The notes: generated by a model from the sequence alone, not told the origin. A stretch of 64,000 bases of DNA from Pseudobdellovibrionaceae bacterium (GCA_044237745.1 JBIIER010000016.1:1053-65052); one strand, 5' to 3'. Shown: positions 53,160 to 62,780, counted from the first letter of the stretch. Translations and numbers: made by a program.

Positions 53160-56100
53160 TTATGGATCCACTAAGAATGTGATTGTTACGTATCCGTCAT
53201 TTGGATTTGAACCACCCACATTAGTTTGATTGGATCCGGTATTGTAAGATGAACCTCCACCACCCCATGTGCTGTAAGAACTCCAAGAGCCATTAATAGA
53301 TCCACCAGAATAGCCGCCACCGGCACCAGGATTTCCTAAGGCACCAGGACCGCCACCGCCGAAGCCCCCATTGTGATTTCCACCATAACAACTGGAGATA
53401 TATCCACCATTACCTCCGTTTGAGAATGAAGTTCCTCCTCGAGCCGTATCACAGTGACCTCCACCATTATTACCATTACCAGTTAATCCGCCACCGGCAC
53501 CACCAGTATTACTTCCAATGACATTGCCTCCGGCACCGCCTGAAGCTCCACTCACATTTCCAGCACCGCTGTAATAACCTTGAGAGTTAGTAGTAGTCAC
53601 ACCATCTCCAAATGATGCATCTCTATAGGTCGATGTACCATAAGAAGCAGAAGGAGCTCCTCCTCCTCCACCAGCAACAATAAGTGCATTTGTTCCCGTC
53701 GCGCCGTTGATCACATAGGTTCCTCCACCACCGCCATTTTCATTATAGTGCGGACTCGTATCGGCTTGACCTTTTTGACCCACGAGAATTTGTAAAACAG
53801 TTCCTTGAGTGAGGCTAAAATCACCCGCCATCACGGCACCTGAACCGCCATTGTAATTTAAAGTTCCACCGGCAGCACCTGCTGCAACAATTCGATAGGT
53901 TCCTGTTTTAGGAACGGTCCATTTTTGAATTCCTTGAGAAGACATATTCAGATAGCTCGTATTGGAGGCCCAGGATTGAGAGCTGTAAGCTGATTGGCAA
54001 GTTCCTAAATTTGGCCCTGTATAACCAGTGGCTCCACAAGTTGTAAAAGTAAAAGCATTGAAAGGATAAAGCTGCGGAACAATGCTTCCTGTTTTGGCAA
54101 GAATCATCCAGTTCGCACCATCAGAAACTAAATTTAAATATTGATACTTAGTAGAAAGCACAGCTCCTGTATAATCATCTATTTTTTGCGAACTTGTAGT
54201 AGCAATAGTCACTGTGTTTACGGAGTTATCTATTTTTTTAATACGATACTCACGACCAGAAATCCCCACTGCAGTTGGGAGAGTTAAAGTGATGGAACCA
54301 CTAGATACATTGGCTAATATATTTGTTTGAGAAGCAGTTAATGTTTGCGTGGTTGTCACAGTATTTAATCCCGCTGCAAAGGATCCTGAAACTTGCAAAC
54401 TTGAAGTTGGAGAAGCTGTTCCCACACCCACACTCCCTGCTGTGTAAGAAACATTGCTTCCACTTACAGCCCAAACACCTGTGCTTGGTTGACTCTTCCA
54501 CGTTGTTCCGTCGCTGGTTAACACATTACCAGAGGCGCCAGGAGCTACAGTTTGTACAGCGCTGGTTCCATTACCTAGAATCACACTGTTTGATGCCAAA
54601 CTGGTAGAGCCTGTCCCTCCATTCGCGACTTCAATTTTATTACCATTCCAAGTTCCCGTTGTGATGGTTCCCAATATTGTAAGATTTGTTGATCCCGCTG
54701 TAGGAGAAGCTCCAATATCTGCAGCTGCGGCTCCTGTTTTATTTATTTTAGACCATGATATTGCGGCCGCCGCTGCAATGTCTTCATCGGCCAGAGAAGA
54801 TTTTGCAGCTAGAGTTCCTAAGTTTGGTTTATTAATGAGATCACTATAACTTCCTGAAGTGGCCGCTGTTGATAAACCCGTCACTTGATCAGCTGGTAAA
54901 GAAATATTTTGACAAGAGAACTGATCCGTAATGGAAGACCAAATTAAAGTCTGCGAAGAATTGCAAGTATCCACATTAAATGCTGAAGAGGTCCCTAAAC
55001 TATTTTTAAGATCAGAGAGTTTCATAAACTGAGGCTGCCATCCCATTCCATTTAAAAATCGCAAATACTTTCCATCATCAGTCGCTAATGCCTTACTCAC
55101 ATTCACACCATTGATTTTATCAACAATAGTTTGAGATTGAGTGCCCGAAACATCTCCAACAAGATTTCCGGTAAATGAAGTTGAGGTATTTGCGTTGCCA
55201 GTAATATCTATACCCCACTGGCCACTCGCTGCTGATTGAATTTCTGAAATATTTATTTTTAAAATATTTTCATCTATTTTTAATCCAGATCCAGGCGCGG
55301 CCTTGGCAAATGCCTGAACCGTTCCCGCATCAGGAGTACAAGTCCATACGCCGTTTGTTTTTTTAAGAATTTCACCGTCTGAGCAAGTCGTTGATGCTAT
55401 TTCTCTTAAAGGCTCTGGAACACTTGTTAGTTTTGAATAGTTTAAACTCACAACACTTGAATCAGAAATTGAACTGCTCTTAATATTGGCCCCATTAAAA
55501 TTATTGGCGTCAGACATTTTTAAATATTTATCTGTTGTGCCATTGATGATGGCTAATAAATCAGACAATTTTGTAGCATCCAACTCAGTATTTGTTGAAT
55601 CAACTCCATCAGCTATTCTTAAAAGTCGTTCCTTTGAATAACCACCCACTTGTAAAGATTCAAGTGCCATTGGAACATATTGAATATCTTGCGCTGGCAA
55701 GGGATCGTAATCTGTAAAATTATAATCAGTGTTGTCCTTAAAATAAACATAGAACTTACGTCCCTCTGTTAATGGAGGAGGATTGTTAGTTGATCCATTG
55801 GCACACTCTATTGACTGAGTCGATGTCATAGTTTTGTTCGAAAAAATCTGACCCATGGTTAAACCGGTAGTGTCTGTTCTTGTGAGTGAGTCTTCTTTAA
55901 TTTTAATAGAAAAAACACCGGCTGTATAAGATAAGTCTTTTTCTTGAATGTCTTCAAAAAGTATACAAGAACTTGGCGGCGCACTTTTAATCTGAACCTT
56001 TATGAGCACAGAATTGCTAATTAAAGGTTTACCATCTGGTTTCAGTAATCTTCCGTTATAAGATAAATACTGCATGCTTGGTGGCGCTTCTGCTTGCGCT

Positions 56101-56216
56101 GATAAATTAGAAAAGAAGATGATAGTAAACAAGCAAGTGATCCAAAATAGAATATTGCTTTGTTTTTTTGTTCGAAAATCTTCCACTGATAAATAACCAA
56201 TTGGTCGTTCTCTCAT
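53160..56216 (-). CDS. tail-fibre-like surface protein with C-terminal ALK/LTK-type TNF-like + glycine-rich domain
   Basis: Start set at the ATG at 56216 (AGGAG SD), about 1018 aa, with N-terminal anchor ILFWITCLFTIIFFSNLSAQA. The middle has phage-fibre-type motifs: SGSYSDLINKPNLGTLAA, TGTWNGNKIEVANGGTGSTSL, GNVLTSDGTTWKS, VGVGTASPTSSLQVSG, LTLPTAVGISGREYRIKKIDNS...SDGANWMIL. The last ~304 aa (54074..53160) carry GRD motifs: YPFNAFTFTTCGATGYTGPN, GIQKWTVPKTGTYRIVAAGAAGG, LQILVGQKG, GGGGGTYVI, LIVAGGGGG, GGFGGGGPG, DGYVTITF. Confidence 0.7.
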   Translation of the reverse strand: MRERPIGYLSVEDFRTKKQSNILFWITCLFTIIFFSNLSAQAEAPPSMQYLSYNGRLLKPDGKPLISNSVLIKVQIKSAPPSSCILFEDIQEKDLSYTAGVFSIKIKEDSLTRTDTTGLTMGQIFSNKTMTSTQSIECANGSTNNPPPLTEGRKFYVYFKDNTDYNFTDYDPLPAQDIQYVPMALESLQVGGYSKERLLRIADGVDSTNTELDATKLSDLLAIINGTTDKYLKMSDANNFNGANIKSSSISDSSVVSLNYSKLTSVPEPLREIASTTCSDGEILKKTNGVWTCTPDAGTVQAFAKAAPGSGLKIDENILKINISEIQSAASGQWGIDITGNANTSTSFTGNLVGDVSGTQSQTIVDKINGVNVSKALATDDGKYLRFLNGMGWQPQFMKLSDLKNSLGTSSAFNVDTCNSSQTLIWSSITDQFSCQNISLPADQVTGLSTAATSGSYSDLINKPNLGTLAAKSSLADEDIAAAAAISWSKINKTGAAAADIGASPTAGSTNLTILGTITTGTWNGNKIEVANGGTGSTSLASNSVILGNGTSAVQTVAPGASGNVLTSDGTTWKSQPSTGVWAVSGSNVSYTAGSVGVGTASPTSSLQVSGSFAAGLNTVTTTQTLTASQTNILANVSSGSITLTLPTAVGISGREYRIKKIDNSVNTVTIATTSSQKIDDYTGAVLSTKYQYLNLVSDGANWMILAKTGSIVPQLYPFNAFTFTTCGATGYTGPNLGTCQSAYSSQSWASNTSYLNMSSQGIQKWTVPKTGTYRIVAAGAAGGTLNYNGGSGAVMAGDFSLTQGTVLQILVGQKGQADTSPHYNENGGGGGTYVINGATGTNALIVAGGGGGAPSASYGTSTYRDASFGDGVTTTNSQGYYSGAGNVSGASGGAGGNVIGSNTGGAGGGLTGNGNNGGGHCDTARGGTSFSNGGNGGYISSCYGGNHNGGFGGGGPGALGNPGAGGGYSGGSINGSWSSYSTWGGGGSSYNTGSNQTNVGGSNPNDGYVTITFLVDP

Positions 56217-56606
56217 GGGTTCTCCTAACAAATTACATAAAAATTAATCAACATTAACTCTTCGGAAGATCTAGTTAAAACTTAAACAAAAAATGCTTAA
56301 TTCATGTCTCCTTTTGAGGAAAATAACTTAATTTTTGTTCAATTTGAGACATGCCAAAAAAATTAAAATCTGATGTTTCATATGTAAAAATAAACCCTTT
56401 TTTTCTTGCAAATTGAGGAGCTACTTTAATTGAAAAATGTTTTGTCGAGATTTTTTATAAATAATTTTAAATTCTTAATACTTGAGAATTAATCACCCAG
56501 ATAGACCTCAATCTTTAATCTCAAGAAGATTCCTTCTCACATCTCTCCAAGATACCAACTAGACTTAACAAAGAAAAGAAAAGGGACTTAAAATTGAGGA
56601 GGAGTT

Positions 56607-58418
56607 ATGGCAGATTTTAAATCAGAAAAAATCCTCGTTCATAAAAAAAATAATTTACATAAATTAAATATTCAATCGCATATTGAGTTTAATAAACTCA
56701 GCCAAGAAATCTCTTGGAAAGAAGAATTTAAAAAAAATAAAAACCAGAATTTTAATATCGGATATAGAACCACTAAAAAACATTTGCATTCAGAGATCTC
56801 TCACAAAATCGCACTTAAAATAGTTGGCAAAGAGTGGCCTCAAAAAAAAGAGGCTATAACCAATGTGACTTACCACCAACTGGATCAGCAAAGTGATTTG
56901 GTCTCATGGGGATTGCAAGAATTGGGAGTTCAACCTAAAGAGAGCGTTTTTTTAATTCTTCCAAGAAGAGCGGAATTTTATTCTCTAGCTTTAGGAGTTT
57001 TAAAAAGTGGAGCTCAACTCTCTTGTTTATTTTCTGCATTCGGACCTGAGCCATTGCAAGTTCGTCTTCTAAAAGGTCATGCAAAAATTCTCATCAGCTT
57101 AAAGTCTTATTACCAACGAAAAATTGAACCTATTCTCAAATTTTTACCTGAGTTAAAACACCTCATCCTTATCAATGATTTGCCAGAGTCTCTAGAAATT
57201 CCAAATACCTTAGAATATAAATCTTGGATGCAAAAAACAAAAATTCTCAGTCAAACTGGTTATTTTAACAACAAAGAATCTGTCGTTTTTTGCAAACCAG
57301 AAGACCCTGCATTGATTCATTTTACCAGCGGAACAACTGGACAACCCAAAGGGGCCGTCCATGTTCACGGGGCCGTTTTGTACCATGAGATCTCTGCAAA
57401 GTTATGCTTAGATCTTCAATCGGAAGATCTCTTTTGGTGCACGGCTGATCCTGGTTGGGTCACGGGCATGTCTTACGGAGTGATTGCTCCTCTATTGATT
57501 GGTGCCACATTGCTGATTGATGAGGCCGATTTTGAAGCACAGAGATGGATGCAAATTCTTCAAGAATTTAGAGTGACTAATTGGTACACAGCCCCCACTG
57601 CACTCAGAATGCTCATGAAACAAGGAAATGATTTTTTTAAACCCTTTCACTTTGAAAATTTAAGAATTGCCTCCAGTGTGGGAGAACCTCTGAATCCTGA
57701 AGTGATCTACTGGGCTAAAGAAAACCTCCATCTTTTGATTCATGATAATTGGTGGCAAACAGAAACTGGTGGGATTGCGATTTCAAATTTTGGCTTTATG
57801 AATATTAAACCTGGTTCCATGGGTAAAGCGGTTCCTGGAATGGAAATCCGTTTAGCTCAACAATTGGCAGACGGCACTTTAAAATTTATCACTCAACCCC
57901 ATGAACAAGGTGAAATCATTCTTCACAAAGGATGGCCTTCACAATTTAAAACTTATCTTGAACAAGAAGATCGTTATCAAAAATGCTTTATAGGAGATTG
58001 GTACCTCTCAGGAGATTTAGCCACTCAAGACGAAGAAGGCTACTATTGGTTTGTGGGCAGAAAAGACGATGTCATTAAATCCTCTGGTCATCTTATTGGA
58101 CCTTTTGAAGTTGAGAGTGTGCTCCTCGAACATCCTAAAGTGGCCGAAGCTGGAGTCATTGGCAAACCAGACCCAGTGGCCGGAGAAATCGTAAAAGCAT
58201 TTATCTCTCTCAAAAAAGGTGAGGTTTTTTCTGAAGATTTAAAAATGGAAATCCTCGCACTTGCGAGAAAAAAATTAGGGCCCGCCGTTGCTCCTCGTGA
58301 ACTCGACTTTATAGAAAGCCTCCCTAAAACAAGAAGCGGTAAAATTATGCGTCGTTTGCTAAGGGCCAGAGAGTTGCATTTGCCTGAAGGAGATTTATCA
58401 ACCCTTGAGCCCTCTTAA
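56607..58418 (+). CDS. acetate--CoA ligase-type acyl-AMP-forming synthetase (AcsA-like)
   Basis: 603 aa with FTSGTTGQPKG (AMP motif), WWQTETGG and SGKIMRRLLR, characteristic of acetyl-CoA synthetases. Confidence 0.8.
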   Translation: MADFKSEKILVHKKNNLHKLNIQSHIEFNKLSQEISWKEEFKKNKNQNFNIGYRTTKKHLHSEISHKIALKIVGKEWPQKKEAITNVTYHQLDQQSDLVSWGLQELGVQPKESVFLILPRRAEFYSLALGVLKSGAQLSCLFSAFGPEPLQVRLLKGHAKILISLKSYYQRKIEPILKFLPELKHLILINDLPESLEIPNTLEYKSWMQKTKILSQTGYFNNKESVVFCKPEDPALIHFTSGTTGQPKGAVHVHGAVLYHEISAKLCLDLQSEDLFWCTADPGWVTGMSYGVIAPLLIGATLLIDEADFEAQRWMQILQEFRVTNWYTAPTALRMLMKQGNDFFKPFHFENLRIASSVGEPLNPEVIYWAKENLHLLIHDNWWQTETGGIAISNFGFMNIKPGSMGKAVPGMEIRLAQQLADGTLKFITQPHEQGEIILHKGWPSQFKTYLEQEDRYQKCFIGDWYLSGDLATQDEEGYYWFVGRKDDVIKSSGHLIGPFEVESVLLEHPKVAEAGVIGKPDPVAGEIVKAFISLKKGEVFSEDLKMEILALARKKLGPAVAPRELDFIESLPKTRSGKIMRRLLRARELHLPEGDLSTLEPS

Positions 58419-58443
58419 AAATTTTTTACTTAAGAAGGATGAT

Positions 58444-59394
58444 ATGAAAAACATTTTAAAAAAAATGATCTTAATCCGCAAAATGGAAGAGGCCTGCGCA
58501 GAACTTTACACTCAACAAAAAATACGTGGCTTTTTACATCTCTACATTGGTGAAGAAGCCGTGGCTACGGGAGTTTTTGAAACCATCCGTCCCGAAGATA
58601 ACGTGGTCGCAACCTACAGAGAACACGCCCATGCTCTTCTTAAAGGAATTCCATTAAAATCTATCATGGCAGAAATGTTTGGCAAAGAACAAGGCTGCTG
58701 CAAAGGCCATGGAGGGTCTATGCATTTATTTTCTCGAGAGGTAAATTTTTATGGAGGGCAGGCTATAGTCTCTGCGGGTCTCCCCTTAGCTGTAGGGCTT
58801 GCCTTAGGAAATCAATTGCAAAAAAAAGATCAAACCACTTTTTGTTTTTTTGGAGAAGGGGCCAGTGCCGAGGGGGAATTTCATGAATCTCTTAATTTGG
58901 CTTCACTATGGAATTTACCCATTTTATTTTGCTGTGAAAATAACCTCTATGCCATGGGCACTGCCTGGGACAGATTCTCTGCTCAAACCAATTTAATTAA
59001 AAAAGTTGAGGCCTACAAAATGTATGCACAAACTGTGGATGGAATGAATGTTTTAGAAGTCATTGAAAAAACCAAACAAGCCGTGAACTATATGCAGAGA
59101 GAGCATAAACCGGCATTTTTAGAATTTAAAACATATCGATTTAAGGCTCATTCAATGTTTGATCCTGACCTCTATCGACCTAAAGATGAAATTCTTTTTT
59201 GGAAACAGCATTGCCCGATTGATTCCTTAAAAAAATTTATGCTTGAATCAAAACTCATTTCTGAAAAAGAAATCTTTCAAATGGAGCAATTGATTGATGA
59301 TGAAATTCAAAGTGCTTGTTTATTTGCCGAAGAATCTCCATTTGAATCTGTCGAAAATCTTTTAAATGATGTTTATGCAAAGGGGGGATTATGA
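58444..59394 (+). CDS. 2-oxoacid (pyruvate/acetoin) dehydrogenase E1 alpha subunit, ThDP-dependent
   Basis: Start set at the ATG at 58444 (AAGGA SD). [20 protein letters not shown] and [17 protein letters not shown] (ThDP motif) are typical of PdhA/AcoA. Confidence 0.88.
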
Positions 59395-60356
59395 AACTCA
59401 CCTACCGTGAAGCTTTAAGGGAAGGAATTCGAGAAGCCATTTTAAATGACCCACGAGTTTTTTTAATGGGAGAAGACGTGGGAGCTTATGGAGGAGCCTA
59501 TGCTGTGAGCAAGGGGTTCCTCAAAGAGTTTGGTCCTGAAAAAATTCGTGACACTCCTCTTTCTGAATCCACATTTGTAGGCGCAGGAATTGGCGCGGCC
59601 TTAAGTGGAATGAAACCCATTGTTGAAATCATGACAGTGAACTTTAGTTTGCTCGCTCTAGATCAAATTATTAATTCGGCGGCCTTATTAAGGCATATGT
59701 CTGGCGGTCAATTTAATGTTCCACTTATTATTAGAATGACCACAGGTGGAGGGCGACAGTTAGCGGCTCAGCATTCTCACTCTTTTGAAGGCTGGTTTGC
59801 TCATATTCCTGGTATAAAAATTTTAGCTCCTTCTAACGTCAAAGACGCCCGCTATATGCTCTCTGAAGCCCTGTTAGATTCTAATCCTGTTTTAATTTTT
59901 GAACACGCTCTTTTGTTGAATCAAACAGACGAAGTGGGACCCAAAGAATTTACTTATCAAGCCAACAAAAGTCAGGTTCTTCGAGAGGGAAATCAAATCA
60001 CCCTCATAACCTATGGAGGAATGACATCAAAATGTTTAGAAGCGGCTCAACAATGCTCTCTTTCGGTTGAAGTCATAGATTTAAGAATTTTAAGACCACT
60101 GGATATGGAACCTCTTATAAAATCTGCTCGAAAAACAAAAAATGTTTTGATTGTAGAAGAGGGCTGGAGAAGTGGAAGCCTCTCGGCTGAAATTTCTGAT
60201 CGAATTCACGAAAAGGCTTTTCATAGTCTTCAACAACCTGTGAGAAGACTCTGCAGTCAGGAGGTTCCAACTCCATACGCCAAACATCTTGAAGAGGCGA
60301 CTATACCCCAAACAAAAGATATCTTGTCGGCACTTAATAAAATGTTTGTTTCTTAG
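59391..60356 (+). CDS. 2-oxoacid dehydrogenase E1 beta subunit
   Basis: 321 aa with ATGA start/stop overlap with E1 alpha. [24 protein letters not shown] and VEEGWRSGS are typical of PdhB/AcoB. Confidence 0.9.
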
Positions 60357-60385
60357 AATTTATTTCTGTGATTGAGAGGTTTAAA

Positions 60386-61372
60386 ATGGATTATGAAATA
60401 AAAATGCCCTCACTCGGCGCTGATATGGATCAAGCAAAGCTTTTAAAATGGAAAGTTCACGAAGGCGATCTCGTCACTAAAGGTCAAACCCTGGCAGAAA
60501 TAGAAACCACAAAAGCCGCCGTTGAAATGGAAAGTTATAAAACGGGGGTGATTACAAAACTGATTGCTCACGAAGGTGACATGATTCCTGTGGGCCAGGT
60601 GATGGCTCAATTAGATTTTAGGGATGAAAAAATAGAAAAAACCCCTCTGCAAAAATTGGAGCCTGTTGATGTTCCTGCTCAAGAAGCTTCCATTTCCATT
60701 TTAAAAATCCGCGAAGCAATTGCTTTGGCTATGACAACCTCAAAAAAAGAAATTCCTCATTATTATTTAAAATCAAAAATTTTTGTAGACGATCTCATTC
60801 ATTGGATGGACCTACAAAATAGTCAAAGAAGTGTCGAAAAAAGAATTCTTCTTCCTTCCCTATTTATAAAAGCACTTTCGGTGGCCTTACAAAAAAATCC
60901 TGATCTCAATGGTTTTTTTATAGATAATCATTTTCAAACAAGATCAGAAATACATATCAATATGGCTCTCGCACTCAAAGGAGGAGGAGTGAGTGTTCCG
61001 GCCTTATTAGACACTCATCAAAAAAATCTCGATCAAATCAATGAAGATCTTAAGGATCTCATAGAGAGAGCACGCTCGTTTAAATTAAAACAAAGGGAAC
61101 TCACAGAAGGAACTTTTACTTTGAGTTTTTTAGGAGATCTGGGTGTGGAAGAAGTTTTTGGAATAATTTTTCCTCCACAAGTGGGAATTTTAGGCATTGG
61201 CTCACTCCATGAAGAGGTCGTGGCTAAAAATAAAAATATTAAAGTCGAAAAAGTGATCAATGTGATTTTAAGTGGCGATCATAGAGTGTCTGATGGACTT
61301 TGTGGAGCTAAGTTTTTAAAAGATTTTGAAAAAGAAATAAGAGGATTTTATGAATCAAAAAATAATGTCTAA
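60386..61372 (+). CDS. short dihydrolipoamide acyltransferase (E2): lipoyl domain + catalytic domain, no peripheral subunit-binding domain
   Basis: Start set at the ATG at 60386 (GAGAGG SD). Lipoyl motif EIETTKAAVEME and catalytic SGDHRVSDG. Only about 25 residues of linker separate the two domains. Confidence 0.82.
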   Translation: MDYEIKMPSLGADMDQAKLLKWKVHEGDLVTKGQTLAEIETTKAAVEMESYKTGVITKLIAHEGDMIPVGQVMAQLDFRDEKIEKTPLQKLEPVDVPAQEASISILKIREAIALAMTTSKKEIPHYYLKSKIFVDDLIHWMDLQNSQRSVEKRILLPSLFIKALSVALQKNPDLNGFFIDNHFQTRSEIHINMALALKGGGVSVPALLDTHQKNLDQINEDLKDLIERARSFKLKQRELTEGTFTLSFLGDLGVEEVFGIIFPPQVGILGIGSLHEEVVAKNKNIKVEKVINVILSGDHRVSDGLCGAKFLKDFEKEIRGFYESKNNV

Positions 61373-61649
61373 AACGGAAGTTACAGATCTCTTAAAAAAA
61401 ATTCTTCAAGCAGTGGCTCCAGAAATTAATTTTGCAGACCTTGATCTCTTGAGAACCTTAAAATCACAAGTTGATATTGATTCCTATGATTTTTATCAAA
61501 TACTCTTAAAACTCGAGCAACAAACCGGTGTGAGTGTTCCAGATCCCGTGGTGAGAGAATTAAAAAATCTTAATGAGTTGATTCTTTATGTGGTTAAAAA
61601 AAGTGAGGATCAAGCTTTATTCGCAAACCAAGGAACTACTACTCACTGA
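61350..61649 (+). CDS. acyl-carrier-protein-like protein
   Basis: 99 aa (or 94 aa from the ATG at 61365), overlapping the E2 stop. DIDSYDFYQILLKLEQQTGV resembles the ACP phosphopantetheine-Ser helix II region (DSLD...). Confidence 0.5.
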   Translation: MNQKIMSKTEVTDLLKKILQAVAPEINFADLDLLRTLKSQVDIDSYDFYQILLKLEQQTGVSVPDPVVRELKNLNELILYVVKKSEDQALFANQGTTTH

Positions 61650-62780
61650 AGCATCATGAGCGCCATCAGTCATTGCGGACTCAACAACTTGAGTGCCATC
61701 ATAGACCCATTGGAGGACTTGCTTGACTGTTGTATTTGAGTTTTCTTCTGTTCCATAAATATAGAACTTATTTTGGAAGGTCGAAAGAGTGCTTGCTAAA
61801 GTGTCTTGTGATCCATCACCTAGGGTGATTGGTGTGATATTTGTTCCATCGTAGTTCCAAAGTTTGGCAACTTTGTAATTTCCATTAGATTCTTGACCGA
61901 CTATGTGAATTTTATTTTCGTTAGTCAAAATTCCAAGGGCATCAGAAGCTTTTGTCGCATCTGTAGTGAGAGTGAGATTAGTGACCACACTTCCATCGTA
62001 CTTCCAAAGTTTTGCCACATAAACAGATCCATTATGTTGTTTGCCCGCAATATAAATATCTTGACCTAAAATAGCCAAGGCATTTGGAGAGGCACTCACC
62101 ACTCCTCCAGATAAATCAATTTCTGTGGTCGTTGTTGTGGAGGTCTCAAATTTCCATAATCTGGGACGCGGATAATTCACATAATTAAAACCAGAAATAT
62201 AAAGATCTGTACCTTGAAGAATCATATCAGTAGCTTCATTATCGGTGCTAGAATTTGTTAAGTTATATTCAGTCACGCCACTGCTTGCATTGTATTTCCA
62301 AATTTTTGCCACAGATTTTACTGAGCTGCCATCAACTTGATTTCCAGAAATATAAACATCCTCACCAATAAGAATCATTCCAGTGGCTTTAGCTCCATAA
62401 AAAGTGACCACGACAGAAATCGGAACCGCAGTTGTGGAGGAACCATCGTACTTCCAAAATTTAATAATATCTAAATTAGAGGAACTCTCTTGCCCGACTC
62501 CATATACGAGACTTCCAGAACGAATGATCTTTATGGCTTTGGCGTGTTCGACTCCACTTGTAAAATTAACAGCAGAAATATTTGAACCTTGGGCTTTCCA
62601 AAATTTAGCCACGTTTTTTGTTCCATTAGAGCCAGCTAACTCATAGCCAACAACAGACACTGTCGGCGTTGAACAAACAGGAGTTGAAGAATTTTCTGAA
62701 GATTTTTTTTTGTTATTTTGATCGCATCCTAAATTGAAGAGGATCATAATAAATAACAATGAAAGAGAAAACTGTTTCAT
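61617..62780 (-). CDS. lipoprotein built from ~7 tandem ~48-aa repeats (beta-propeller-like)
   Basis: 387 aa, signal plus LFNLGC. Repeat core (V/I)AK(F/I/L)WKYDG(S/T) occurs 7 times: AKFWKAQG, IKFWKYDG, AKIWKYNA, RLWKFET, AKLWKYDG, AKLWNYDG, LQWVYDG. Each is preceded by D(V/L/I)YI(S/A)G. Confidence 0.55.
   Translation of the reverse strand: MKQFSLSLLFIMILFNLGCDQNNKKKSSENSSTPVCSTPTVSVVGYELAGSNGTKNVAKFWKAQGSNISAVNFTSGVEHAKAIKIIRSGSLVYGVGQESSSNLDIIKFWKYDGSSTTAVPISVVVTFYGAKATGMILIGEDVYISGNQVDGSSVKSVAKIWKYNASSGVTEYNLTNSSTDNEATDMILQGTDLYISGFNYVNYPRPRLWKFETSTTTTTEIDLSGGVVSASPNALAILGQDIYIAGKQHNGSVYVAKLWKYDGSVVTNLTLTTDATKASDALGILTNENKIHIVGQESNGNYKVAKLWNYDGTNITPITLGDGSQDTLASTLSTFQNKFYIYGTEENSNTTVKQVLQWVYDGTQVVESAMTDGAHDASVSSSSLVCE

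Follow-up and report, generated by a model that had tools for sequence, protein, structure and literature searches.

A 64,000-nucleotide stretch of DNA from a Pseudobdellovibrionaceae bacterium (GCA_044237745.1, JBIIER010000016.1:1053-65052; the whole stretch is called the window below) carries, at positions 56607-61649, five tightly packed genes on the same strand, which encode an AcsA-like ligase, the E1alpha, E1beta and E2 proteins of a pyruvate dehydrogenase (PDH)-type enzyme, and an acyl carrier protein (ACP). This five-gene cassette recurs in unchanged order across many bacterial phyla, and its carrier protein goes strictly with this family of E2s. The reading we favour, tentatively and at somewhat less than an even chance, is that pyruvate would be converted to acetyl-lipoyl-E2 and then to acetyl-S-ACP, that the ligase would interconvert acetyl-S-ACP with acetate and ATP, and that lipoamide dehydrogenase (E3) would be supplied in trans.

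Conservation of the cassette and its acyl carrier protein

One genome per species of bacteria and archaea was scanned with the E2 motifs MPSLGADM and L[SA][AG]DHRV[ST]DG, and at least 594 confirmed cassette loci were found in more than ten phyla. The best 80 of these loci were annotated with phmmer and a small ACP hidden Markov model (HMM), and the order ligase-E1alpha-E1beta-E2-ACP was seen in 80 of 80 wherever the contig allows. As the identical order recurs in all inspected related loci, the arrangement in the window is far beyond chance; the preliminary description of this DNA had reported five co-oriented genes with short gaps or overlaps, and the coordinates of the open reading frames (ORFs) and the family matches agree with it. 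Close E2 homologues from metagenomes and a Bdellovibrio metagenome-assembled genome (MAG) (L010, L011 and L013) likewise lie in the identical five-gene order, with different flanks. The hosts belong to Bdellovibrionota, Acidobacteriota, Campylobacterota, Nitrospira, Chloroflexota, Bacteroidota, Gemmatimonadota, Verrucomicrobia, Cyanobacteria, Actinomycetes and Alpha-, Beta- and Gammaproteobacteria, and include nitrite oxidisers, sulfur oxidisers, rhizobia, Burkholderiales, chemolithoautotrophs and predatory bacteria. Plasmid or chromid copies were found on Sinorhizobium fredii pSF45436d, Ralstonia wenshanensis p56D2 and a Leisingera plasmid; the NCBI labels on the plasmid cassettes are acsA, pdhA, 'alpha-ketoacid dehydrogenase subunit beta', E2 and 'acyl carrier protein'. 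Compared over 36 complete cassettes, the five proteins have correlated pairwise distances (r = 0.74-0.88), and thus the cassette moves and evolves as a unit. When the E1alpha and E1beta distances were controlled for, the E2-ligase partial correlation was r = 0.56 (E2-E1alpha, 0.04; E2-E1beta, 0.21), possibly owing to coupling or simply to shared rate variation.

Several loci depart from the common form. E1alpha and E1beta are fused into one protein of ~665-685 aa on the Leisingera plasmid (L110, 6605-8602) and in L074, L082, L087, L088 and L091, from Caldilinea/Chloroflexota and Pararhodobacter hosts. Arthrobacter oryzae (L052, 6223-8223) carries a cassette E2 without the peripheral subunit-binding domain (PSBD) and an ACP with no upstream ligase or E1, and a 259-aa ORF without a Pfam match stands there instead, possibly a remnant or a reduced variant. 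Flavobacterium sp. ZT3R25 (L046, 5974-8146) has a cassette-type E2 after ~1 kb without ORFs and an E1beta fragment, no detected ACP, and a phosphoenolpyruvate (PEP) synthase, a short-chain dehydrogenase/reductase and a D-2-hydroxyacid dehydrogenase as neighbours, which suggests that the cassette has decayed or that the stretch is masked.

The last gene of the cassette in the window is a 99-aa ORF that matches PF00550 at 27.4 bits against a cut-off of 20.8 and contains Ser45 within the motif DIDSYDF. An AlphaFold2 model built with 50 family members (pLDDT 89.9) is a four-helix bundle with helix II starting at Ser45, and superposes on the Thermotoga maritima ACP crystal structure with a TM score of 0.86. 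Pro24, Asp44, Ser45 and Asp47 were invariant in the 50 members, and the consensus of cassette ACPs is IAPE...LR.QLDIDS[MF]DFLNF...IPE.DY. The preliminary description had proposed an ACP-like ORF with a DIDSYDF motif overlapping the E2 stop, and had named failure against phosphopantetheine-binding models or loss of the serine context as the outcome that would speak against it; the Pfam match, the predicted fold and the invariant serine all uphold the proposal. It had also called for a phosphopantetheinyl transferase (PPTase), and two Sfp-type PPTase genes were identified in the genome, on contigs C27 and C66. Cassette ACPs are acidic (median pI 4.3; window copy, 5.0), and their best sequence matches in PDB are mitochondrial complex-I ACPs. 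Against L112, a JGI metagenome contig of a near-identical strain that shares the flanks of the window cassette, dN/dS over the part in which the two diverge was 0.12 for E2 and 0.09 for the ACP; both genes are therefore under purifying selection. Judged from these matches, the small ORF is a genuine conserved carrier protein, strictly linked to the cassette E2 family and predicted to be phosphopantetheinylated.

The ACP family comprises ~1396 clusters at 50% identity (E <= 1e-10), nearly all of them stand-alone proteins of 80-100 aa. A search for informative fusions among the 150 best matches from 1.8 billion representatives found no fusion to E2 or ligase, and turned up only tandem ACPs, a single fusion of an ACP to OsmC and some extensions that are uncharacterised. 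The OsmC fusion (P0215, 239 aa) joins a cassette-type ACP to an OsmC-like peroxiredoxin domain, and may be a gene-call artefact. OsmC/Ohr enzymes are reduced by lipoyl proteins, and the fusion hints at a link of the lipoyl-E2 to peroxide defence. Two tandem ACP genes follow the cassette E2 in a Desulfobacterales locus (L095, 8221-8864), as would be expected for a flux-carrying arm.

Dehydrogenase subunits, probable E3 dependence and the AcsA-like ligase

In the curated-model search E1alpha, which matches PF00676, scored 433 bits with TIGR03182 (cut-off 394) and E1beta 369 bits with NF006667 (cut-off 321). The best PDB match of E1alpha is human PDH E1alpha (229 bits), ahead of the branched-chain 2-oxoacid dehydrogenase E1alpha subunits (120-149 bits) and Geobacillus PDH E1alpha (101 bits), and the thiamine diphosphate (ThDP) motif G[DE]G...NN and the active-site motif YRF[RK]xHSM are conserved across the cassette E1alpha family. 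E2 consists of a Biotin_lipoyl domain (aa 10-82) and a 2-oxoacid_dh domain (aa 105-324) separated by a linker of ~22 residues, with the lipoyl-Lys49 in ETTKA and the catalytic motif SGDHRVSDG at aa 302-310; the lipoyl domain and DHRxxDG-type catalytic domain given in the preliminary description are thus both present. The nearest solved relative of the catalytic domain is mammalian PDH E2, and the PDH E2 equivalog TIGR01349 was matched by the window E2 at 226 bits, short of its cut-off of 445. The lipoyl domains of the cassette form a subfamily with MP[ST]LGADM at the start and ETxK[GAS] round the lipoyl-Lys, x being variable rather than Asp. As E1 and E2 are of PDH type, pyruvate is the most likely substrate predicted for the cassette E1.

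E2s of the window clade are without the C-terminal tail L(Q/N)xPxxL that is usual both in the family and in canonical E2 cores; the window E2 ends in ...KEIRGFYESKNNV. In classical E2s this tail aids the assembly of trimers into the large core, and the oligomeric state of E2 may differ in this clade.

Neither PF02817 nor a family-specific PSBD HMM matched the window E2, and no E3 gene lies in the window, both as the preliminary description had stated. However, the truncated E2 that it had described is not a general feature of the system. The PSBD HMM matched 65 of 72 cassette E2s across phyla (~90%), the exceptions being the window, two other Bdellovibrionota, a Rhodoferax, an Arthrobacter and two doubtful cases. 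In an alignment of close homologues most had a normal PSBD, while in the window E2 and its four nearest relatives the linker was short or of low complexity. The trait changed 11 times on a tree of the 121 nearest E2s, and at least nine of these changes, read as losses, were forced by well-supported branches. PSBD loss is thus, as the tree suggests, sporadic, repeated and tolerated, and not a defining trait of the cassette.

Nor should the lack of E3 in the operon be taken for independence from E3, to judge by the Campylobacterota copies. In each of the seven Campylobacterota loci whose upstream sequence is long enough, a divergent E3 gene lies within ~7 kb of the cassette, and most of these loci also have a radical-SAM LipA and an LplA/LipB-type ligase directly upstream; such LipA, lipoyl ligase or E3 neighbours are confined to Campylobacterota. 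The cassette E2 was the sole 2-oxoacid_dh protein in five of six Campylobacterota genomes checked, and in all six the adjacent E3 was the sole lipoamide dehydrogenase above the cut-off (433-444 against 408.8 bits). Since these copies bring their own E3 and lipoylation genes, the cassette appears to need both: in hosts devoid of other lipoate enzymes it is seen to bring them along, and this gene content fixes its predicted chemistry as oxidative, lipoate-dependent and NAD-linked. In the window genome two E3 genes, the genome-wide occurrence of which the preliminary description had left to be checked, were found on contigs C44 and C11, each beside other E2 genes.

The ligase contains AMP-binding and AMP-binding_C domains, scored 740 bits with the acetate-CoA ligase model NF003313 (cut-off 729), and finds its best PDB match in the 572-aa AcsA of entry 9g79 (457 bits). 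It keeps the acetate-pocket motif DNWWQTETG, the catalytic and acetylatable Lys579 (Lys609 in Acs) in PKTRSGKIMRR, and the hinge GRxDD; the pocket motif was found in 60 of 63 cassette ligases, and none of 61 lacked the SGK Lys. Cassette ligases share at least 48% identity with one another; to the nearest AcsA outside the cassette, that of Brevibacillus, identity drops to 42.6%, and to canonical Acs it does not exceed 35%. Arginines of the coenzyme A (CoA) step were mapped by alignment to Arg191, Arg526 and Arg584 of Salmonella Acs and tallied in 61 full-length cassette ligases. At the Arg526 position 36 had Leu, as in the window (Leu496), 25 had Met and none had Arg. The motif there was SGH[LM][IV]G in all 61, and SGHLIG in the three annotated plasmid cassettes, as opposed to SG[HE]R in every non-cassette Acs checked; the Arg is kept in Brevibacillus AcsA, E. 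coli Acs, PDB entries 9g79, 8rpk and 2p2f, and the genome's own two Acs paralogues. On this alignment the change from Arg526 to Leu or Met is a clean synapomorphy of the cassette ligases.

In Acs, Arg191 and Arg584 bind the CoA phosphates, whereas Arg526 touches the acyl-adenylate phosphate and stabilises the thioester-forming conformation; Arg526/528 variants of Acs are badly impaired with CoA, those of the Methanothermobacter enzyme at this position having a kcat reduced 130- to 326-fold or not being saturable with CoA (PMC10455477). As Arg526 is changed and the genome already has two canonical Acs, the sequence argues that the cassette ligase does something besides ordinary acetyl-CoA synthesis.

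Gene layout, neighbours and host genome

The features of the locus are collected in the table below.

Table. Features of the five-gene cassette in the window and of the regions next to it
Feature	Coordinates	Strand	Remarks
Upstream intergenic region	56232..56606	.	Divergent from the MAT-fibre gene; Shine-Dalgarno GAGGAGGAG at 56596-56604, graded strong as read from the sequence
AcsA-like AMP-forming ligase, 603 aa	56607..58418	+	Lys579 codon 58341-58343; Leu496 codon 58092-58094
E1alpha, ThDP-binding subunit, PDH type, 329 aa	58405..59394	+	TTG start, 14 nt before ligase stop; alternative ATG 58444, 25 nt past ligase stop
E1beta, 321 aa	59391..60356	+	4-nt ATGA overlap with E1alpha; Transket_pyr and Transketolase_C
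E2, 334 aa	60368..61372	+	GTG start, 11-nt gap from E1beta (29 nt from alternative ATG 60386); lipoyl and catalytic domains; Lys49 codon 60512-60514; DHRVSDG 61277-61297
Dedicated ACP, 99 aa	61350..61649	+	Start overlaps E2 stop by 23 nt (8 nt from alternative ATG 61365); ribosome-binding site AAGAGGA before 61350; Ser45 codon 61482-61484
Lipoprotein gene, convergent	61617-62780	-	Overlaps ACP 3' end by 33 nt

An Rfam search upstream of the ligase matched no riboswitch or RNA family, and FNR/CRP-type low-oxygen sites upstream of the ligase were not above chance (108 in the window against 86 expected), the sole intergenic match having two mismatches. No conserved upstream DNA was found among six Bdellovibrionota copies (the window and five others), and promoter and terminator scans gave matches no higher than those of shuffled controls.

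The preliminary description had looked towards downstream consumers of an acyl-ACP; in 83 loci no conserved consumer gene stands beside the cassette. Clustering of flanking ORFs of these loci and a Pfam tally of 130 neighbours (within two genes) gave no partner or consumer gene in more than ~10% of loci. The commonest neighbours were Hsp20 (8 loci), PEP synthase (PpsA; 7), universal stress proteins (7) and a phosphoribosyltransferase (6), and plasmid cassettes were accompanied by class II ribonucleotide reductase, FtsH and BON-domain genes. The neighbourhood has a loose flavour of stress and pyruvate metabolism rather than that of a pathway. Non-ribosomal peptide synthetase (NRPS) and polyketide synthase (PKS) genes were found neither in the window flanks nor in the 83 related loci.

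The host genome is a 3.1-Mb Bdellovibrio-like MAG in which the MAT-fibre gene adjoins the cassette, and which also encodes a housekeeping AcpP, the two canonical Acs paralogues and, on C44, a sucA-sucB-lpd cluster. C11 carries a lipA, E2 (440 aa, aceF-like), lpd and lipB cluster without an adjoining E1 (L014, 4563-8839). Candidates for the housekeeping PDH E1 are an orphan, divergent E1alpha/beta pair on C20 (L024, 4263-6430) and a 918-aa ThDP protein on C66 (L023, 4583-7339), which is distantly AceE-like (TIGR00759, 119 bits against a cut-off of 860). On C61 (L016, 5254-8910), a gene for a 930-aa fatty-acid cis/trans isomerase (PF06934) is immediately preceded by one for a 280-aa protein in which only the C-terminal portion of an E2 catalytic domain is present (PF00198, 106 bits), an unusual pairing.

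A sample of 301 genomes of the phylum was searched for cassette-type ACPs, defined by at least 69 bits and coverage of the whole model, against ~50 bits for AcpP. Such ACPs were present in ~65 of the 301 genomes: 59 of 67 genomes in one family (f19), with the others scattered in four other families. In the window's own family the cassette was found in the window genome alone, and as 35 of the 36 family genomes are without it, the cassette in this lineage is, on this distribution, accessory and laterally acquired. A housekeeping PDH role was considered and ruled out by the same 35 genomes and by the other E1, E2 and E3 genes of the genome.

Over positions 53160-62780 of the window, L112 was 100% identical in nucleotide sequence in the MAT-fibre gene, ligase, E1alpha and E1beta, and 98.1-98.7% identical in E2, ACP and the downstream lipoprotein gene, with the boundary between E1beta and E2. 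This step in identity indicates recombination, or strain mixing in one of the assemblies.

Proposed acetyl route, alternatives and known systems

In the route that we favour, E1alpha and E1beta would decarboxylate pyruvate and reductively acetylate the lipoyl-Lys49 of E2, for which homology gives strong grounds. The E2 catalytic domain would then pass the acetyl group to the phosphopantetheine (Ppant) thiol at ACP Ser45, instead of or besides CoA, as inferred from the strict E2-ACP linkage and translational coupling; the holo-ACP would be made by one of the two Sfp-type PPTases. On weaker grounds, the ligase, devoid of the Arg of the thioester-forming state, would interconvert acetyl-S-ACP and acetate. 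A lipoamide dehydrogenase from another part of the genome (the Lpd of C44 or that of C11) would re-oxidise the dihydrolipoyl-E2, as suggested by the Campylobacterota copies. Since thermodynamics forbid the PDH reaction in reverse, and E3 and lipoylation appear to be needed, the flow should run from pyruvate through acetyl-dihydrolipoyl-E2 to a thiol acceptor. The window E2 has lost its E3/E1-docking domain and yet is under purifying selection. Because the cassette is a strict five-gene unit without a conserved consumer and has been transferred repeatedly into diverse hosts, it may form a closed system that draws only on host E3, lipoylation and PPTase, and an ACP carrying acetyl between E2 and ligase would be the only scheme that uses all five products. 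The acyl-S-carrier intermediate of the preliminary description therefore survives in part: it is the most economical reading, and the ACP is real and linked to E2, but E1 and E2 are of PDH type and E3 would still be needed.

For the ligase step, we lean slightly, as a guess, towards acetyl-S-ACP + AMP + PPi -> acetate + ATP, which would give an ATP-yielding pyruvate-to-acetate shunt for energy-poor or low-oxygen states. This direction is favoured because in Syntrophus an AMP-forming Acs has been shown to work towards ATP (PMC4992975, PMC13404658), because the genome would have no need for a third acetate activator, and because of the pyruvate and stress neighbours. Taken as one joint reading, the cassette could be a CoA-independent energy module in which acetyl from pyruvate is placed on a private Ppant arm and cleaved by the ligase to acetate and ATP without Pta-AckA or free CoA, and with which aerobes, lithoautotrophs and predators survive energy or oxygen limitation; we regard this fuller reading as rather improbable. 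In it, the PSBD-less copy of the window would be a minimal form, with E1, E3 and ligase no longer docking classically.

Several observations weigh against the favoured route. The Arg584 equivalent is kept in all 61 cassette ligases, so that CoA may still be used, and the Arg191 loop keeps its R/K-K basic residues. Carrier-loading adenylation domains normally keep the Arg526 equivalent as well, so loss of this Arg alone is no sign of an ACP substrate. The catalytic domain of E2 resembles that of ordinary, CoA-using PDH E2s; the partial correlations of the ACP with each partner are weak (0.10-0.21) and uninformative about its partner; and the direction of the ligase reaction is itself a guess. 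As to a role in stress, the association with stress genes amounts to only 3-8 loci per family of ~83, and a low-oxygen control site is absent from the window.

The most serious alternatives keep parts of the same chemistry. The ligase, from acetate, and E1/E2, from pyruvate, might both load the carrier, and an enzyme encoded away from the cassette might use up the acetyl-ACP, for instance to prime the synthesis of lipids, polyketides or storage polymers. Such a supply would account for the constant pairing of two acetyl-generating enzymes with one carrier, for the acetate-type pocket of the ligase, Acs enzymes normally running forward, and for the tandem ACPs of the Desulfobacterales locus. 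We consider it unlikely, as no conserved consumer stands beside the cassette in 83 loci of more than ten phyla, a dedicated divergent ACP would have to be recognised by host enzymes after each transfer, and a housekeeping AcpP is already present. An equally low likelihood is given to conventional chemistry, in which a stress-induced accessory PDH and an Acs would both make acetyl-CoA and the ACP would be regulatory, structural or buffering, like the mitochondrial ACP of other complexes. The invariant change of Arg526 to Leu or Met would cripple a normal Acs, the invariant Ser45 and acidic surface of the ACP point to a Ppant arm that is loaded, several lineages can dispense with the PSBD, and the genome has two canonical Acs while 35 of 36 family genomes do without the cassette; in favour of conventional chemistry are the scores of E1alpha and E1beta above PDH cut-offs, the alignment of E2 with mammalian PDH E2, the PSBD retained in most cassette E2s, the apparent requirement for E3, the retained Arg584 equivalent and basic Arg191-loop residues, and the resemblance of the ACP to complex-I ACPs.

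Two further alternatives fit the cassette poorly. A dehydrogenase for acetoin or another 2,3-dione or acyloin, of the AcoABC type and with a distal E3, is suggested by the operon without E3 and by the closeness of Aco E1 subunits, often found in operons without an obvious PDH role, to PDH E1alpha/beta. A full-length alignment of E2 with AcoC, which the preliminary description had named as evidence for an ordinary enzyme of this kind, was not seen: with the AcoC model NF011457 (cut-off 307) E2 scored 75 bits, and the match was confined to the lipoyl domain. E1alpha passes the PDH equivalog, no acoR, acoX or butanediol genes are among the neighbours, and an acetate-specific ligase and an ACP are foreign to Aco systems, so that acetoin chemistry seems very improbable. 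We find still less credible a system of the Qnc/Scl type, in which E1 would draw its C2 unit from a ketose phosphate and glycolyl would reach the ACP through E2, to feed a secondary-metabolite assembly line. The precedent cited in the preliminary description holds for the architecture, as SclQ1-4 and QncN/L/M have the same parts list of E1alpha, E1beta, lipoyl-acyltransferase and ACP (PMC6335953), but no further: the cassette E1 is of PDH type (E1alpha meeting the PDH equivalog), no NRPS, PKS or tailoring genes are found here or in the 83 related loci, the Acs-like ligase has no counterpart in Qnc/Scl, and a spread among chemolithoautotrophs and predators, beside stress genes, is unfit for a natural-product role.

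Were acetyl to travel on the carrier as in the favoured route, central carbon and energy metabolism would gain a new branch point, one that probably matters for survival during starvation or at low oxygen, and E2 acyltransferases and Acs-type ligases would gain a new class of partner. Bacteria in many phyla may then handle acetyl on a protein-bound arm, not only on CoA, and the PSBD-less copy of the window would be a natural minimal version. Full-text literature searches found no publication describing this gene combination, and in public annotation the genes pass as ordinary acsA, pdh and ACP genes. The low-oxygen locus lxa of Burkholderia cenocepacia was considered as a described home of the cassette and rejected, as no such genes appear in the paper on it. 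New in this analysis are the repeated PSBD losses, the distribution over the phylum, which shows lateral acquisition in the lineage of the window, and, in Campylobacterota, the linkage to the sole bona fide E3 of the genome.

Among known systems, the PDH complex with heterotetrameric E1 (mitochondrial or alphaproteobacterial PdhA-PdhB-PdhC-Lpd) resembles the cassette in its E1alpha and E1beta models, in the lipoyl and DHRxxDG domains of E2, and, judged by the Campylobacterota copies, in a dependence on lipoylation and E3. It differs in that the cassette always comes with an AcsA-like ligase and an ACP of its own, has the lipoyl motif MP[ST]LGADM...ETxK[GAS] in contrast to ETDKA, usually has its E3 unlinked, is without the PSBD here and has lost it repeatedly elsewhere, and is accessory and mobile rather than housekeeping. 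Acetoin dehydrogenase (AcoA/AcoB/AcoC, with or without AcoL) shares the operon of E1alpha/beta and lipoyl-E2 with an E3 that may lie elsewhere, but has no ligase or ACP, and the cassette E2 fails the AcoC model and has no aco regulators or butanediol genes nearby. The ligase is like the short AcsA of Bacillus subtilis (PDB entry 9g79) in its acetate pocket, catalytic Lys, Arg584 equivalent and hinge, and differs from AcsA-type Acs in the Leu or Met at the Arg526 position and in its constant co-encoding with E1, E2 and ACP; Acs1 of Syntrophus aciditrophicus (SaAcs1) shows that the Acs family can run towards ATP.

2-Oxoacid dehydrogenase complexes deliver their acyl groups to CoA, and to our knowledge the only exceptions are rare natural-product systems. 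QncN/QncL/QncM of quinocarcin and SclQ1-4 of scleric acid, which form glycolyl-ACP, combine genes for a ThDP-dependent E1, a lipoyl-acyltransferase E2 and a small ACP, and they prove in principle that acyltransferases of the E2 type are able to discharge onto carrier proteins (PMC6335953). Compared by their described architecture, these systems differ from the cassette in sitting in actinomycete NRPS clusters, in using ketose phosphates and in having no Acs-like ligase. The cassette can thus be classed as a 2-oxoacid dehydrogenase with a dedicated carrier, with Qnc/Scl as its sole described relatives in logic.

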